From Escherichia coli (GTDB taxonomy: Bacteria; Pseudomonadota; Gammaproteobacteria; Enterobacterales; Enterobacteriaceae): DNA of 64,000 bases. The position numbers and the translations under genes were made by a program. Under the pieces are notes generated by a model. It did not search any database, was not told the DNA's origin, and was given only the letters and a program-made list of their open reading frames with translations. The stretch lies in NCBI RefSeq assembly GCF_965641715.1, contig NZ_OZ282453.1; one strand, given 5' to 3'. Numbering within the stretch: position 1 is the first letter of the stretch; the number at the start of each line of letters is the position of its first letter. This document shows positions 1 to 44,197 of the stretch, in pieces.

Positions 1-396
1 ACGGAAAATTCCACTGTCAGTCCCTCCATTAGGCATGAACAATGAGTCTACGTTAAAACGTAACCTCAAATTAGTATGTGGATTTTGATATCACTTATGC
101 AAAAATTTCATTAATAATAGGGGACTGTAATTTCTCTATTATGGGAAAAATGAAGCAGACACAATGAGATTAATGACAAGCACAAAATTGCCCGATGCGC
201 TATGATTATCATGCCGACCAGAGAATCGCAATATATTGAATTTTCGCTATTTTTTAGGCGAGATAAGTTCCAGCATGCACAACCAGCGTTTGTCAAAAAT
301 CTGAGATACTGTCAGTCGCCTGGCCTCGGACCTTTCTGTTTTTGATACACTTATAGCCTTTGTCATACGAAAAATGTGCGAAATGGCGAAGGGTAA

Positions 397-1260
397 ATGG
401 AGAATGTTATGATCAGGCAGAAGATTTTGCAGCAACTCCTGGAGTGGATTGAGTGCAATCTCGAGCACCCTATCTCAATCGAAGATATCGCACAGAAATC
501 TGGCTACAGTAGACGCAATATCCAGCTCCTGTTCAGAAACTTCATGCATGTGCCGCTGGGAGAATACATTCGCAAACGAAGACTTTGCCGGGCAGCTATT
601 CTTGTCCGACTGACAGCGAAATCTATGCTTGATATTGCACTATCTTTGCATTTTGATTCACAGCAGTCATTCAGTCGTGAATTTAAAAAATTATTCGGAT
701 GCACTCCCCGAGAATACCGGCTCCGTGATTATTGGGATCTGGAAAATATCTTCCCTCCATTTTTAGCACGCCAACATCAAAAAACTGATTGCACATTAAT
801 CCATTTCCCAGAAACACGTATTTTTGGCAATGCATTTAAATATGATGTTGAAATATCGAATAAATCACCGGATGAAGAAGTTAAACTGCGACGTCATTAT
901 TTAGCCAGATATATGAAGAATTTTAAGACGGATATCTATTTCGTCTCAACGTTTAAACCATCAACAAAGTCGGTCGATTTACTCACAGTTGAAAGCTTTG
1001 CTGGTACGGTATGTGAACATGCTGACATGCCGAAAGAGTGGACAACGACCCGAGGACTTTATGCCTCTTTCCGTTATGAAGGAAACTGGAAACATTACTC
1101 TGACTGGGTGCGGAACATCTATCTAATAGAGTTGCCTGCAAGAGGGTTAGCCAGAGTGAACGGCAGCGATATTGAGCGCTTTTATTACAATGAAGATTTC
1201 GTAGAAAAGGATTGCAATGATGTTGTTTGCGAAATTTTTATCCCCGTTCGTCCTCTTTAG
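397..1260 (+). CDS. ykgA: AraC/XylS-family regulator, Rob-like (N-terminal HTH, C-terminal GyrI-like domain)
   Basis: 287-aa ORF; AraC-type double HTH in residues ~10-110 followed by a GyrI-like C-terminal region; position next to eaeH as I recall for K-12. Confidence 0.7.
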   Translation: MENVMIRQKILQQLLEWIECNLEHPISIEDIAQKSGYSRRNIQLLFRNFMHVPLGEYIRKRRLCRAAILVRLTAKSMLDIALSLHFDSQQSFSREFKKLFGCTPREYRLRDYWDLENIFPPFLARQHQKTDCTLIHFPETRIFGNAFKYDVEISNKSPDEEVKLRRHYLARYMKNFKTDIYFVSTFKPSTKSVDLLTVESFAGTVCEHADMPKEWTTTRGLYASFRYEGNWKHYSDWVRNIYLIELPARGLARVNGSDIERFYYNEDFVEKDCNDVVCEIFIPVRPL

Positions 1261-35391: not shown

Positions 35392-36621
35392 TTATGCTGG
35401 CCAATCCCACTGCTGATAGGCAGAGAATAGGCGCGTGAGCTCAGCAGGCGCAAGAATATCAACAATATTAGCTCTGTAGCTATGCGATTTACCTAATGGA
35501 ACATTTTCGAAATGATTAGCTTGATAAGGATTAAAATCGTGAAGCTCACCTAATGTTGAGATATCGGTATTAATAGTTTTAAGCCAAGAAACAAGAATTA
35601 CTTTTGCCCCTGTTCTCTGTATGTAAGCTCTTGCCGATTCAAAACTATAGCCTCGAGTTGTTATATCATCTATAAGAAGTACTGTTTTACCAGGGCCTAA
35701 AGGTGGTTTTTTATAGGTAGTTCTAGGATTTCTGTGTGGCTGAGAATTAAGACAAATTGTATTAAGTTGATTGCAATGGTCAATTGCAACTCCCTCATTT
35801 CTTGCTTTTTGAGATTTTTTGGAAGTCGTATGCCTTAAAATAAGATCTGGGATATACGTCTTGCGAAAACATTTTCCAAATATTGAAATCGCTTCATCCA
35901 TGATATTATTCCCATATCCTTGCTTATGCCCTGGATAAACACTAACATAATTAATCATCTTATGAATGCCACTAAAATAGAGACTGGATATTAAGGCACT
36001 CGTCCAAAATTCAGGATGGCCTAATCCATGTTTAGCAGCAGCACGAGCATCTTCAGAGTAAAGAGTATACTCTTCCTTCATGGTGCTGAAAGGAGCAAGT
36101 GCATAGAAATTAAAATCACCATCGTGAATTTCATGACACCAAAGATGCTCTCTTAAACAGAAGGTATCTATAAATCTAGCAATATCTTTAGGGGTTGAAA
36201 ACTCGAAACCATAATCTGTTTTGTCTGCCCACCATGTAGCTCTTAAAAAGAGCAACTCACCATTAACTGCTGTTTGCATGTCGTTTATCGAAGCACCAAT
36301 GTACAAAGTTTCTGTACTTTCCCAACCCATCAAATCAAGGACATATTTTGTAGCATCCGCAGTTGGCTTCCCTGGAATGCTCTTATCTTTCGCTCGACAA
36401 AGATATTTAAATTCTCCCCAATGCTTTTGTAACACATCCTCTAAAGGGGTTCTTTCATCTCCGACAACCCAACCCCTGTTAGTGAATACAACAAACTCGA
36501 TCTTTTTAGTTCTGAAATATCTAATTAATTTATCTACCTCTGCAAAGATTTCGCTATCGATCTTTCCCTTAGGCACAAGAATATCTTCAACACTAAGAAT
36601 CACACCCTTAATTTTGCTCAT
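35392..36621 (-). CDS. Protein with C-terminal phosphoribosyltransferase (PRTase) domain; ShosT-like candidate effector
   Basis: 409 aa; PRPP-binding motif VLLIDDITTRGYSF near the C-terminus; N-terminal ~250 aa unassigned; AT-rich; 11 bp downstream of the DprA-like gene. Confidence 0.65.
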   Translation of the reverse strand: MSKIKGVILSVEDILVPKGKIDSEIFAEVDKLIRYFRTKKIEFVVFTNRGWVVGDERTPLEDVLQKHWGEFKYLCRAKDKSIPGKPTADATKYVLDLMGWESTETLYIGASINDMQTAVNGELLFLRATWWADKTDYGFEFSTPKDIARFIDTFCLREHLWCHEIHDGDFNFYALAPFSTMKEEYTLYSEDARAAAKHGLGHPEFWTSALISSLYFSGIHKMINYVSVYPGHKQGYGNNIMDEAISIFGKCFRKTYIPDLILRHTTSKKSQKARNEGVAIDHCNQLNTICLNSQPHRNPRTTYKKPPLGPGKTVLLIDDITTRGYSFESARAYIQRTGAKVILVSWLKTINTDISTLGELHDFNPYQANHFENVPLGKSHSYRANIVDILAPAELTRLFSAYQQWDWPA

Positions 36622-36631
36622 TTCATCTTCC

Positions 36632-37612
36632 TTAGAGATCTAAGCTCTGCTGTATCGGCTGTGCTTTTAAATCATGATTATTATTCAAAATATAATTACT
36701 CATCTCATTCAATTCAAAAGGCATTAAAAAAGATAAAGAATTTCTATTTTCTTCAGCAAACTTCAATTCTGGTCTACTTTCATACGTAGTAGGAAGATAT
36801 GGACTCGCTATCTTTTTTGCATACTTAAAAGCATAATCAACAGTATGTGATGTTCCACTTTTAATATTCCATTCGACTGGTATTAGTGAATCACATAAAG
36901 CAGCCTGGATTCTGTTACGCCTTACAAAATTTTCTGCGCTATATGTTTGTTCAGGTAGATACTCGGTAACGATAGCCCCACCATTAGAAACTATTGCTCG
37001 ATATAACTCTTTAGAACCTTTCGGATACTCGACAAAAATCCCATTACCCAATACCGCAATAGTTGGAATGCCATATCTCAGCGATTCATAATGACAACAT
37101 TGATCTATTCCTGTCGCCAAACCACTGACTGTTGAAACATCTTTAGAATATAGAGAAGAAACAATCAGTTTTACTAGAAAAATACCATCATCCGTTGGCT
37201 TTCGTGTCCCCACAATTGCAACAGATTTCTTATTAAGAAGTTCATAATTACCATGAACAAAAATCCAAAATGGCGGATCGCTTATGTTCTTTAATGATTG
37301 AGGAAATGTAGCCTGATCATAAAAGGTGAGCACAATACCATTTTTATTGAGTTCACGAGCTCTCTCCAGTCCCTTAGACCAAAGGTCTTGTTGAAATGTT
37401 TCCCAAGATATATTTTTAGGCAAGGAAACTCTTAGATATCCTGCCAAGGCATCAGCTGTATTATCTTTTAATATATTCTTAAATCCAATTTTGGATTGAT
37501 AGATTTTGCGAAGCGTCCAGTAACCAACCCCCTTTAGACAAGTTAAGGCAAGAAACGCAATAATTTCATTTTTCCAAAACTCTCTAACTTCAGTGTAATC
37601 TTTATATTCCAT
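36632..37612 (-). CDS. DprA/Smf-like (SLOG-superfamily Rossmann) protein; ShosA-like candidate
   Basis: DprA signature region (VAIVGTRKPT ... SGLATGIDQCCH ... TIAVLGNGIFVEYP ... FVRRNRIQAAL); start set at the internal Met MEYKDY. Confidence 0.65.
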   Translation of the reverse strand: MEYKDYTEVREFWKNEIIAFLALTCLKGVGYWTLRKIYQSKIGFKNILKDNTADALAGYLRVSLPKNISWETFQQDLWSKGLERARELNKNGIVLTFYDQATFPQSLKNISDPPFWIFVHGNYELLNKKSVAIVGTRKPTDDGIFLVKLIVSSLYSKDVSTVSGLATGIDQCCHYESLRYGIPTIAVLGNGIFVEYPKGSKELYRAIVSNGGAIVTEYLPEQTYSAENFVRRNRIQAALCDSLIPVEWNIKSGTSHTVDYAFKYAKKIASPYLPTTYESRPELKFAEENRNSLSFLMPFELNEMSNYILNNNHDLKAQPIQQSLDL

Positions 37613-38027
37613 TTTACGTTTGCCTTTTAGATTACAACCCGTACTCAACACAAAAAATTTAGAAAATTGTTGCCAAAAGCATATTATAAATAGCATCTTA
37701 CCGCAGATTTGTGAAGCAACAACATCCCTAGGAGAAACCTTAACCTAGCGGGACAACTTACTGACCAATCCTCAGCTAGCTCATTGAATTGCCCCCATAT
37801 CGCACAGCCCCGCACGCCTGCCCGCTTCGCTTAACAGACTGGTTTTCATGCACCTCATAAATCGTCTCAGAAGCCACCAAACAAGGGCTTTCTCGTCAAA
37901 AATGGTGCATAAGACTCATGCGTTTTCATGCGCCATAGACATGCACTCATGCGCTCTCAGGCCAGCCAGGGAAAAGGTGTTAAAAATCCCGGTACTCGAC
38001 CGGGATTACGTAGGCGTTTTTTTCTAA

Positions 38028-39597: not shown

Positions 39598-39776
39598 GAC
39601 TTCTCCTGTCGGGTTGGTTCGTTACGTCAATTGTGTCGTGGCTGACACAAGCACACTATCGGTGCTCAGTGTGTGGTGGCTGGCACAACGGGCGCTTGCG
39701 GTTATTCAGACGTGGCTATGAAAGCCAGCCAGATAAAAATGCCCACTGTTTCAGTCTGCTTTATGTCCCTGATGCG

Positions 39777-39964
39777 GTGGAACAGGTGAAACATGTGTTA
39801 CAGCTTTGTTTTATAAATCATTTATATACACTGCACCGGTGGAACATCGCGGGTAACAAGGTGGAACAGCGGATTGGCTGGCGTTACATCTGTTCCACCT
39901 CACTATTTCAGAAGGTGGAACAGGTTCAGCCCCTGTAAAATACGGTTGTTCCACCTGTTTCACC
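39777..39964. repeat. Iteron cluster: at least 8 copies of GGTGGAACA / TGTTCCACC (and GGTGAAACA variants) in both orientations; candidate replication region
   Basis: Copies at 39777, 39785, 39838, 39860, 39891, 39914, 39947, 39956; similar to the P4 type-I iteron TGTTCACC; immediately 3' of the alpha gene. Confidence 0.55.
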
Positions 39965-39998
39965 TGTTACCCTTAATAAATAAGACTCACGCAAAGCC

Positions 39999-42671
39999 TT
40001 AACCCGGCACCTCGCTGTTGAAGACATAGAGCCTGCGGGGATTCATCTCTGGCGGGCGAATGGTTGTCTGGAGTTTGCCATCAGTGGAGGGCAGCAGGTA
40101 TCCACGATCTGCGCACAGACGCGCCACCTTGCGCGGGTCAAATCCCCTGCAGATTTCTTTCCAGCCGGACGGCATGACATAAAACGTAGTGACAGCTTCC
40201 GTGCCCTGCGCGGTACTGCCTTTCTCCACCCTGCGCCAGCCCACCATATTGGCGGGGCGGTTGCGCTCGTCATACCAGTCTGCAAAGCGGCTGTACTGAT
40301 TCGCGGTAAAGAAACTGCGAACCTGCTCCAGTGCGGCGATATCTTCCTGATTGGCGGTGTGCCCGCGCTCTTTCAGCCATGCGTTCAGGCAGACGCGGGT
40401 TGCCCGCAATGCTTCACCCTCAGGCCAGCCGGTGATACCCTGACGGGTTGCCAGTTCACCTGCCATCGCCACCAGTGCAAAGCGGTTCACAGCCCGGCCC
40501 ACCTGATTGCCTGCATCTTTCGGAGTCAGGGCGGCAGCATATTCCTTCATCAGCGATTTTGCCTGTGCCGTTAGTCCGTTAAGATCAGCGGTCAGTGCTT
40601 TCAGCCACTCCCGGAACGGCGAACCGTAGTAGCAGGACGTGGCCCATTCAAGATGCTCTGCCAGAGCCTTGCCGCTGTCGAAGCCGTGCAGCTCCTCAAA
40701 AACGCCAAACTTCCCGGAATCGCTGGGGATCTGGATCATCCTGACTTCCATCCCGGCAAAAGTACGCTCACCGGCCTTTGCCGCATGTTCGGTCAGAGAT
40801 AACTCGCCAGTTGAAAAGAACAACAGGCGCCACTGCTTACGGGTACGCAGTTCACCGTCCGTACCGGCACGACCCTTGCCCTGACCGTTTGCCAGCATGT
40901 AGGCGATATTGCCTGCCTCGCGTCCGTCAACTTCCCGGATCTCATCAAGCATCATGGCGGCATCGTTGCGGCGGCTGGCACATCCCTCCAGCGCGTTGCC
41001 GGTGGCCCGCCATGTCTGCCAGTAGTCAGGCCCGCCGCAGACGGAGGTTGCCGCTTTCATGGTGGTGGTCTTACCGTCTGTCGATTCCCCTTTGAGGTGG
41101 TAGCCGCCGCCGTCCATACCAACCAGCCGTAACAGTGGTGCAGCAAAGGCCAGGCTGACAGCAAATGCCACGCGGGAGTTGCCGGTACAGTAGCGGGATA
41201 CGTTCTCCCGCCATTCCTCTGTTGTGCCCGACACGCGGAAATCACGCCCCTGCACGGAAGTGGTCTGGAGAATGACACCCTCTGCACCTTCACCGCTGAC
41301 CTCATCCTGCAGGACGTAAACCTGACCATGCCAGCCAGTACGGCTGACGCAGGTCACGCGACGTTCCGGTTTACACAGTGAGATATATTCCATCAGGCGT
41401 GCGCGTGCCTCACCGGTGGTGCTGATATAAGACAGCCCGTTAACAAGCAGTACCCGGCGCAGTTCCTCACCACTGCCGCTCAGCATTTCCATCGGCATCG
41501 CCCAGCGGCGACGCTCACCCCACGTATCTTCCCATTCCAGCAGTCGTCCGAAGTTACCGCCATCGGCATCGCAGGTGATTGCCGTCACGCGCAGCGGGCT
41601 GCATATTTTGACGTTCTGGATCTCCGTCTCACCGTTGCGCTGTACCTGCTTTTCATACCAGAGATATTCCTGGGTAAGACGGAACCCGTGCGGCAGTTGC
41701 GTGCGGCCTTCCCCGCACAGTACCAGACCGTTGCGAAAGGCTTCACGGGCACGGGTAATACCGTGCTCCCGATGAAAGTCATTCCAGTCAGCCTTAATCT
41801 CTCCTGGTGGCAGCGTCATCCAGCCGCCAACAGCTTTTGCCGCCCGTTCAGCAAAGGCTCTGCCGGGATTCTCCCCCCCGTCCTGAAAATCGTTATCACC
41901 GGCGATGATAATTTTTACCTCAGGCCAGCGTGCCCGCAGCGACTGCGCCACATTGGGCAGGTTGCCCGCAGATATGGCAGCCACTACGCATCCGGCAGTG
42001 AGCTGGCTTACCGTCAGCGCCGTAGCGTAACCTTCGGTAATCACCACCTGTACCGGTGGTTCAGACGGTAACGGGCTGAGCGACACAAACGCGCCTTTCA
42101 TCGTGCTGCCGGGCAGTATGCTTTTTTCACCCGTCGGGGCGATAAGCTGTGCACCGGTCACGGCTCCGGTGTTGGTCGTGAGTGGTAACAGCAGGGAACC
42201 AGCAGGAAAATCCTTACCGCTGATATGCTGCACGCTTCCGGTCAGAGAGGCCGGGTATCCGGCGAACCCTTTTCCTGCCAGATAGGCACTTTCTCCCGTG
42301 TGGCTCTCTTTCATCAGCGTCGCCACGGTAAGGCTCATGTCGCGTTTAGGGGCTTTTTGTCTGGCAGGCTTAACAGGCAGTTCCTGCACATCCGGCACAT
42401 TAAGCACCTGCGCCACCTGCTGCGCAGCCTTTCTGACGTTGTAGCCGGTTACGAGCTTAACCAGATCCAGACCGTCACCATTGCCACACTGGCTGCAGAT
42501 CCACGTCCCGCGCCCGTCAAGGTCATCGAGGCGAAAACGATCCTTGCCCCCACATTTCGGGCAGGGACCGTGCCTGCCGTTTTCAGGTACATCAATACGC
42601 AGCATATGCAGAATAACGGGCCATTTCCCCCGCGCGGCGGCTGAAATCTGCGTAACCGTCTGTATTGTCAT
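39999..42671 (-). CDS. P4 alpha-like primase/helicase
   Basis: 890 aa; N-terminal zinc-binding CPKCGG...CSQCG; Walker A GESTDGKTT. Confidence 0.8.
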   Translation of the reverse strand: MTIQTVTQISAAARGKWPVILHMLRIDVPENGRHGPCPKCGGKDRFRLDDLDGRGTWICSQCGNGDGLDLVKLVTGYNVRKAAQQVAQVLNVPDVQELPVKPARQKAPKRDMSLTVATLMKESHTGESAYLAGKGFAGYPASLTGSVQHISGKDFPAGSLLLPLTTNTGAVTGAQLIAPTGEKSILPGSTMKGAFVSLSPLPSEPPVQVVITEGYATALTVSQLTAGCVVAAISAGNLPNVAQSLRARWPEVKIIIAGDNDFQDGGENPGRAFAERAAKAVGGWMTLPPGEIKADWNDFHREHGITRAREAFRNGLVLCGEGRTQLPHGFRLTQEYLWYEKQVQRNGETEIQNVKICSPLRVTAITCDADGGNFGRLLEWEDTWGERRRWAMPMEMLSGSGEELRRVLLVNGLSYISTTGEARARLMEYISLCKPERRVTCVSRTGWHGQVYVLQDEVSGEGAEGVILQTTSVQGRDFRVSGTTEEWRENVSRYCTGNSRVAFAVSLAFAAPLLRLVGMDGGGYHLKGESTDGKTTTMKAATSVCGGPDYWQTWRATGNALEGCASRRNDAAMMLDEIREVDGREAGNIAYMLANGQGKGRAGTDGELRTRKQWRLLFFSTGELSLTEHAAKAGERTFAGMEVRMIQIPSDSGKFGVFEELHGFDSGKALAEHLEWATSCYYGSPFREWLKALTADLNGLTAQAKSLMKEYAAALTPKDAGNQVGRAVNRFALVAMAGELATRQGITGWPEGEALRATRVCLNAWLKERGHTANQEDIAALEQVRSFFTANQYSRFADWYDERNRPANMVGWRRVEKGSTAQGTEAVTTFYVMPSGWKEICRGFDPRKVARLCADRGYLLPSTDGKLQTTIRPPEMNPRRLYVFNSEVPG

Positions 42672-43723: not shown

Positions 43724-43892
43724 GTTCACCTCCGCAGGGAATGCGCCCGGCAAAGCTCAGTACATAATCCGGGGCAAGTCTTCGCCGCGCTGACCGCTCG
43801 TTATCTGCGGTGATCCTTAACATCACAGGACGGGCATTGCGTTGACTGCGGTTGATCGCCGCAAATAACCAGGTACACTTCTGTTTAGCCAT
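43716..43892 (-). CDS. Small basic protein (58 aa), first gene of the left operon
   Basis: ATG with AAGAGG Shine-Dalgarno 8 nt upstream; MAKQKCTWLFAAINRSQRNARPVMLRI...; not in the ORF track. Confidence 0.3.
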   Translation of the reverse strand: MAKQKCTWLFAAINRSQRNARPVMLRITADNERSARRRLAPDYVLSFAGRIPCGGEHA

Positions 43893-43983
43893 CTTCGTTA
43901 CCTCTTATAACGGTTGGTTAAATGCCCGATTTGTGTTCCCGCACAATCGGGCATTGCTTTTACAAGCGAACTATACTTACAAT

Positions 43984-44023
43984 GGTAATTACCATGTAGT
44001 CATCATATTCCAGGGTAATTACC
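43984..44023. promoter_or_regulatory. Two copies of the perfect 10-bp palindrome GGTAATTACC (43984-43993 and 44014-44023); candidate operators
   Basis: Read directly; between the divergent left operon and the RHH ORF. Confidence 0.4.
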
Positions 44024-44197
44024 ATGTCAACACCACAAGAGAAACGTTCCCCACCATTCCAAATGCGTCTTACCGACGATTTTAGGTTGCAACTCGAAAA
44101 AGAAATGCGCAAAGATGGAGATAGCGCGTTGGCAACTTGGATTAAAAGAATTTTACGTAAAGAACTACAATCACGCGGGATTGACCCTAAAGGTTAA
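44024..44197 (+). CDS. Ribbon-helix-helix (Arc/MetJ-like) candidate repressor, 57 aa
   Basis: MSTPQEKRSPPFQMRLTDDFRLQLEKEMRKDGDSALATWIKRILRKELQSRGIDPKG; beta-strand plus two helices pattern; not in the ORF track. Confidence 0.45.
   Translation: MSTPQEKRSPPFQMRLTDDFRLQLEKEMRKDGDSALATWIKRILRKELQSRGIDPKG

Follow-up and report, generated by a model that had tools for sequence, protein, structure and literature searches.

A cluster of 9-bp iterons downstream of a primase-helicase gene as the probable replication origin of a P4-like satellite in Escherichia coli

A P4-like satellite and its iteron cluster

The window analysed here is a stretch of 64,000 nucleotides of the Escherichia coli chromosome, identical over the region of the iteron cluster to strain PSJ-36, in which an integrated element sits between tRNA-Thr/proA and the pao genes. 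Read along the minus strand, the element encodes an integrase, a helix-turn-helix regulator, an icd-like gene, a homologue of cnr (DUF5375) and an 890-aa primase-helicase, followed by an intergenic region of 401 bp with the cluster in it, a sid homologue, psu, an ogr/delta-like gene and the pair ShosT/ShosA. Because its gene content includes cnr, sid, psu, delta and an icd-like gene, we regard the element as a P4-like satellite. Such satellites are present in a large share of Enterobacterales genomes, where they carry anti-phage defence cargo. The cargo in this case consists of two genes on the minus strand, one at 35392-36621 that PADLOC matches to ShosT (E = 3e-94; a phosphoribosyl transferase in RefSeq) and one at 36632-37696 that it matches to ShosA (E = 3e-90; DprA in RefSeq), and by these profile matches the variable region of this P4-like element carries Shosta, an anti-phage system.

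Between the leftward operon of the icd-like gene and a small rightward ORF, the perfect palindrome GGTAATTACC occurs twice, at 43984-43993 and 44016-44025, 32 bp apart. The two copies may be operator sites of an early or immunity control region. Close by, positions 43887-43958 of the plus strand give a weak match to the Rfam antitoxin RNA SymR (E = 0.01), which at 31.6 bits stays below the gathering score of 61 and is probably a chance match; in P4, the equivalent place is occupied by the immunity RNA.

The iterons themselves occupy positions 39776-39964 (189 bp), where eight 9-bp words are found in both orientations: six are exact copies of GGTGGAACA, and two are GGTGAAACA, which differs from it by one mismatch (Table 1). 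A preliminary description of this DNA, made from the sequence alone, had reported at least eight copies of the motif plus variants, beginning at 39777. The clustering and the use of both orientations stand; the count becomes six exact copies and two variants, eight in all, and the cluster starts at 39776. Three looser words of the GTAACA type, two of them GGGTAACA and one CTGTAACA, belong to the same word family and lie within the cluster or beside it.

The arrangement of the words is best followed along the minus strand, starting from the stop codon of the primase-helicase gene (39999-40001). The first looser word is reached 26 nt past the stop and the first exact-type iteron 34 nt past it, and the three words GGGTAACA, GGTGAAACA and GGTGGAACA together form a triple tandem with a spacing of 9 bp, at ~26, 34 and 43 nt after the stop codon, offsets that are also found in related loci. 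Single words in alternating orientation come next, then an A+T-rich stretch, and the array closes with a final inverted tandem pair at 39793-39776. The outer tandem pairs, both with 9-bp spacing, are mutually inverted. The A+T-rich stretch, a candidate DNA-unwinding element, has six iterons between itself and the gene and two beyond it; the exact-type words that flank it (39838 and 39785) share one orientation, and only the outer tandem pairs are inverted with respect to each other.

By chance, ~0.48 exact copies of GGTGGAACA would be expected per 64 kb and 0.0014 per 189 bp, and the Poisson probability of at least six exact copies within 189 bp is ~1e-20. Outside 39776-39964 there is no exact copy of GGTGGAACA anywhere in the 64-kb window, and no other 9-mer in the window has six copies inside 200 bp.

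Table 1. Features of the iteron cluster and its neighbouring genes, in window coordinates (residue numbers for protein domains).
Feature	Position	Strand	Basis or remark
GGTGGAACA iterons	39776, 39838, 39860, 39914	+	Exact word search
GGTGGAACA iterons	39891, 39947	-	Exact word search
GGTGAAACA iterons	39785 (+), 39956 (-)	+ and -	One mismatch to GGTGGAACA
Looser word GGGTAACA	39851-39858	+	Within the cluster
Looser word GGGTAACA	39965-39972	-	Beside the cluster, gene side
Looser word CTGTAACA	39795-39802	-	Edge of the A+T-rich stretch
A+T-rich stretch (candidate DNA-unwinding element)	39800-39830 (31 bp)		81% A+T; window mean 50% G+C
Primase-helicase gene, 890 aa	39999-42671	-	ORF and translation; Pfam domains
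Zinc-ribbon and Toprim primase	aa ~6-316		P4-alpha-like
DUF927 helicase	aa 330-612		
C-terminal region	aa ~641-890		Ends in a winged-helix-like domain
sid homologue, 247 aa	38854-39597	-	phrog_6165, E = 7e-93; 24% identity to P4 Sid, E = 7e-13
TGT-N12-ACA box, upstream (Ogr/Delta-type activator site)	39670-39687	-	Aligns with P4 Psid box TGTGTCAGGGCTGGCACA
TGT-N12-ACA box, second	39632-39649	-	38 bp downstream of the first; aligns with P4 TGTCCGGTGTACGTCACA

Some 90 bp beyond the cluster, and 35-90 nt upstream of the start codon of the sid-like gene (39597), lie two TGT-N12-ACA boxes. These boxes and the DNA around them can be aligned with P4 Psid, and they stand at nearly the same distance from sid, which opens the late operon sid-psu-delta downstream of the proposed origin. 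To judge from this alignment, they look like an Ogr/Delta-activated, Psid-like late promoter that lies beside the origin and is not part of it. Across the whole interval between the two genes (39598-39998), no sigma-70 promoter was found and no intrinsic terminator was predicted, and a known RNA was rejected as an explanation of the intergenic region, which has no Rfam match. With no intrinsic terminator predicted ahead of the iterons, transcription of the early operon may continue past the primase-helicase gene into the origin.

Conserved geometry and changing words in related loci

A coding role for the cluster was ruled out. The preliminary description had raised the alternative that the repeats fall inside a coding frame conserved in homologues, and this is not so: all six frames hold stop codons across the cluster in 34 of 39 related loci, and RefSeq annotates no CDS over it. 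Among 5,426 complete E. coli genomes, 325 carry the 401-bp intergenic region at an identity of 90% or more, and the cluster region had no DNA-level match in the phage collection. In an alignment of six close relatives, the iterons vary far less than the sequence that separates them: of 75 variable columns, 3 lie within the 72 iteron columns (Fisher P = 5e-4). A part of the changes in iteron columns swaps one word variant, GGTGGAACA or GGTGAAACA, for the other.

A scan of one genome per species gave 43 loci encoding relatives of the 890-aa protein (57-98% identity) in many Enterobacterales, with genera that include Enterobacter, Pantoea, Yersinia, Citrobacter, Xenorhabdus, Proteus, Rahnella and Pectobacterium. 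Sequence enough for analysis was available at 39 of these loci, and 38 were given a word class. At 36 of the 39, a repeat cluster occupies the same position, in the first ~300 bp downstream of the gene. The offsets of the words from the stop codon and their orientations are nearly constant: three words in the '+' orientation stand at ~25/34/43 nt, one '-' word at ~76, one '+' word at ~99 and two '-' words at ~130/152, and beyond the A+T-rich stretch two further '-' words stand at ~205/214. What varies, and does so by lineage, is the word itself, which may be GGTGGAACA, GGTGTAACA, NNGGTAACA, GGGTAACA, GYGGTTACA or TGTASTACA. The A+T-rich maximum lies ~140-190 nt past the stop codon in 24 of the 38 loci with a classed word, and in relatives of the NNGGTAACA class the A+T-rich stretch is flanked by a '+' word and '-' words. 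At the related loci, no second iteron cluster was found over 4 kb in either direction. A constant geometry filled with a changing word is what would be expected of a protein-binding array that evolves together with the protein that binds it.

The cluster also stays beside the primase-helicase gene where the downstream genes differ, sid and the Psid boxes following in close relatives only. In Kosakonia sp. S29 (locus L018, 788-10456), a primase-helicase of 65% identity and an origin built of NNGGTAACA words belong to a different element: downstream come ogr/delta, a retron-like reverse transcriptase and an integrase, without sid or psu, and upstream come a homologue of a major head protein (capsid) and a homologue of a P4-type repressor. 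This gene content indicates a rep-ori module that is common to different satellite types.

A few loci depart from the common pattern. In two loci of Rahnella (L027 and L028), the 250 nt after the gene hold the near-palindromic word TGTA(C/G)TACA, which can be read on both strands, so that a different style of word occupies the same positions. At three other loci (L032, L041 and L044; 57-74% identity), a k-mer count over the 500 bp that follow the gene brought out no obvious cluster of repeats. L044 looks degraded, an open frame of 34 aa being all that was recovered at the gene end; at L032 and L041 the origin might lie elsewhere, or its word might have been overlooked by the k-mer count.

Two pairs of loci combine very similar proteins with different words. 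The proteins of L022 and L024 (Xenorhabdus) are 96.6% identical and those of L023 and L025 (Proteus) 97.7%, with just 5-7 substitutions in the last 130 residues, and within each pair the words differ, GGTGTAACA against NNGGTAACA or GGGTAACA. These could be tested as natural specificity-switch pairs. We used local identity in a sliding window as a predictor of a shared word, and it performed well both in the last ~35 residues (AUC 0.84) and in helicase residues 527-556 (AUC 0.87). Since the helicase segment is a conserved one, and the variable C-terminal segment varies within a single word class too, we claim no recognition code.

The primase-helicase and the reading of the cluster as an origin

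RefSeq names the 890-aa product 'TOPRIM and DUF927 domain-containing protein', and its Pfam matches are Zn_Ribbon_Prim, Toprim_3 and DUF927. The name of alpha primase/helicase, under which the preliminary description had placed it, fits only the primase: BLASTP aligns the protein with P4 alpha over residues 6-316 at 38% identity, and finds nothing past residue 316. The DUF927 helicase is of the SaPI Rep/Cch type: by sequence, residues 410-643 match both SaPIbov1 Rep, a SaPI initiator-helicase (8tch), and Cch, the helicase of SCCmec (5dgk). The last 250 residues are a module in which over 4,600 representative proteins end. Aligned as a profile, the module pairs with the C-terminal portions of 5dgk and 8tch, weakly but with the order preserved. 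When the 250 residues were modelled with AlphaFold (pLDDT 86), the best fold matches were the C-terminal regions of SaPI Rep (8tch) and Cch (5dgk), and Foldseek concurs. Homology to the C-terminal region of alpha was considered and rejected, as it is absent by BLASTP, by hhalign (which gave the module a probability of 0.2% against the last 160 residues of alpha, no similarity) and from the best fold matches listed. With a primase that is alpha-like and a helicase and C-terminus that are SaPI Rep/Cch-like, the 890-aa protein is a chimera. Like the initiators of the SaPI/PICI type, it is a helicase with a winged-helix-like C-terminal domain.

In our reading, to which we give a probability of about 0.8, the P4-like satellite, integrated at tRNA-Thr beside proA, has this cluster as its only origin of vegetative replication. 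The preliminary description had named the cluster as the best candidate for the satellite replication region, and this is supported: the cluster adjoins the initiator gene, contains an A+T-rich stretch, is non-coding, has conserved iterons and recurs in 36 of 39 loci. Most likely it is a single-site origin of the SaPI/PICI type inside a P4-like satellite, rather than a diverged alpha-binding site.

In SaPIs, the origin lies directly downstream of rep and consists of 6-12 iterons around an A+T-rich region. The iterons are recognised by a winged-helix domain in the C-terminal domain of Rep, which melts the DNA and then loads itself as a helicase (PMC9371898). E. coli PICIs share this layout, and the pri-rep-ori module of EcCICFT073 is functional and supports plasmid maintenance (PMC6092414). 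From the homology of the protein and the similar layout, we infer a SaPI mechanism for the cluster. The 890-aa protein would then be a self-loading 'Pri-Rep' initiator-helicase composed of an alpha-like primase, a DUF927 helicase and a winged-helix-like end. Its C-terminal domain would bind the 9-bp GGTGRAACA words that lie to either side of the A+T-rich stretch, the DNA would melt at 39800-39830, the helicase would load itself at the melted DNA, and the N-terminal primase would begin synthesis by supplying primers. Recognition of the words by the C-terminal domain, melting and activity as an origin are predictions made by analogy with the pri-rep-ori modules of SaPIs and E. coli PICIs, for which such a mechanism has been demonstrated experimentally.

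The preliminary description saw in the cluster an alpha binding site that has diverged. Stated fully, this reading holds that the cluster is a diverged P4 ori1/crr, bound by an orthologue of alpha through a C-terminal domain of the alpha type whose specificity has drifted by one base. The motif had been described as one base different from the P4 type-I iteron, and this holds as a one-base insertion relative to the annotated 'ori type 1 repeat' of P4, TGTTCACC (TGTTC[C]ACC, with the inserted base in brackets). The alpha-like N-terminal primase fits such a descent as well, as do the place of the cluster, which follows the gene on its 3' side in the manner of crr and stands before Psid-sid in the manner of ori, and the cnr/DUF5375 homologue that precedes the gene as in P4. 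The C-terminal 160 residues of alpha bind the origin (our statements on alpha binding rest on the annotation of the P4 record and on general knowledge), and it is here that the likeness fails: no alpha similarity is detected past residue 316 by BLASTP, or to the last 160 residues by profile, and the helicase and C-terminal region are of the DUF927/SaPI Rep/Cch type. The words, moreover, segregate by initiator type. Among 20 satellites with a true alpha (84-99% identical to P4 alpha), 19 keep four to eight copies of GTGAACA in the 450 bp that follow alpha, and the 9-bp word is absent from all 20, while a GGTGAACA cluster is never found at the loci of the DUF927 type. The two words thus represent two initiator types. 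Nor is there a second cluster, and the P4 octamer (TGTTCACC/GGTGAACA) is absent from the one present, its two scattered copies in the window being at chance level. The one-base likeness, though genuine, gives no evidence of drift, and we therefore find a diverged alpha-binding site very improbable.

Somewhat less improbable, though still unlikely, is that the initiator does bind the iterons but that the cluster is mainly a control element and not the start site. Possible roles would be crr-like enhancement, control of copy number by the pairing of iteron sets, or a roadblock between early read-through and the late promoter. P4 crr offers a precedent as an auxiliary cluster directly 3' of alpha, a bound protein could insulate the two transcription units because no intrinsic terminator is predicted between the primase gene and the late promoter, and the cluster is asymmetric around its A+T-rich stretch. 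Against this, neither the window nor the 4 kb around the related loci contains another iteron cluster that could act as the origin, and the cluster 3' of rep in SaPIs and PICIs is the origin itself; control and origin roles are, in any case, not mutually exclusive. We would give the lowest standing to the idea that the repeats bind some other protein, such as Delta/Ogr, Cnr, the arm-binding domain of the integrase or a host factor, or that they have no function. The cluster does lie ~90 bp from a Delta-type late promoter, and its inheritance with the gene could be explained by physical linkage alone. However, it persists where the late genes and promoter boxes have been replaced, Delta/Ogr sites have a form of their own (TGT-N12-ACA), and the tRNA-Thr attachment end is ~7 kb away; non-functional repeats, for their part, are hard to reconcile with a geometry that is conserved while the words change, and with iterons that are more conserved than their spacers.

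If the cluster is a single SaPI/PICI-type origin, it provides a testable pair of origin and initiator, it means that a P4-like satellite can run on a replication module of the SaPI/PICI type, and it is an example of module exchange between satellite families. The identical geometry, filled with five or six 9-bp words, is a natural series for learning how initiators read iterons, and the same series bears on the replication compatibility of co-resident satellites. In the literature searched, the coverage of which is incomplete, we found no origin described for the branch of P4-like satellites whose replication protein is of the DUF927 type; published surveys of these satellites leave origins aside, and the only hits of a full-text search for the octamer were unrelated primers.

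Comparison with known replication systems

The element and P4 are satellites of the same type, with homologous primase domains (38% identity) and nearly equal words, GGTGAACA in P4 and GGTG[G/A]AACA here, the latter being one base longer. Like P4 ori, the cluster lies upstream of sid and a homologous Psid with its two TGT-N12-ACA boxes, and like P4 crr, it lies directly 3' of the replication gene. In P4, however, these are two clusters, both annotated as replication regions, with ori ~4.7 kb from the end of crr, whereas there is one cluster here, and the helicase and C-terminal region of alpha have no detectable similarity to the 890-aa protein. The type-II repeats of P4 and its t-alpha terminator, which lies between alpha and crr, were not seen at this locus. 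Alpha and sid of P4 are on opposite strands and several kb apart, whereas the late operon here is co-directional with the replication gene and directly follows it, and this is why one cluster can hold the positions of both crr and ori. It is conceivable, if doubtful, that a contiguous order of pri-rep, one iteron origin, Psid and sid is the ancestral state of P4-type replicons. In that case, and this is speculation, a rearrangement would have split or duplicated the rep-adjacent origin, so that crr stayed with alpha and ori with Psid. The near-identical words, in combination with DNA-binding regions that have no detectable similarity, could reflect either an old origin that was retained after a swap of initiators or cross-talk between co-resident satellites.

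SCCmec Cch (5dgk), an MCM-like helicase, resembles the 890-aa protein in its DUF927 helicase core and has a similar C-terminal region, but it lacks the fused Toprim primase. No iteron origin next to cch was found described in the literature searched.

The closest likeness in layout is to the SaPI/PICI modules (SaPI1, SaPIbov1 and SaPI5 PriRep5 of S. aureus and E. coli PICIs such as EcCICFT073), where the origin, like the cluster here, is immediately 3' of the initiator-helicase gene. As in these modules, the iterons are short, occur in both orientations and are accompanied by an A+T-rich stretch, and eight words with three looser ones fit the range of 6-12. The primase and Rep of SaPIs and PICIs can be fused, as they are in the 890-aa protein (PMC9371898, PMC6092414), and SaPIbov1 Rep (8tch) shares with it the DUF927 helicase and C-terminal region, by sequence and by fold. 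The differences lie partly in the array and partly in its surroundings. The words are 9 bp long here and 5-6 bp in SaPIs (PMC9371898), and the opposed iterons that are the rule in SaPIs are replaced by an asymmetry of six and two in which the iterons bordering the A+T-rich stretch have the same orientation. The primase domain resembles that of P4 alpha, and the host element, with its cnr, sid, psu, delta and icd-like gene, is P4-like and not a PICI. With the late-promoter context of P4 kept and a single iteron cluster beside its replication gene, the element would work like a single-origin SaPI/PICI replicon.
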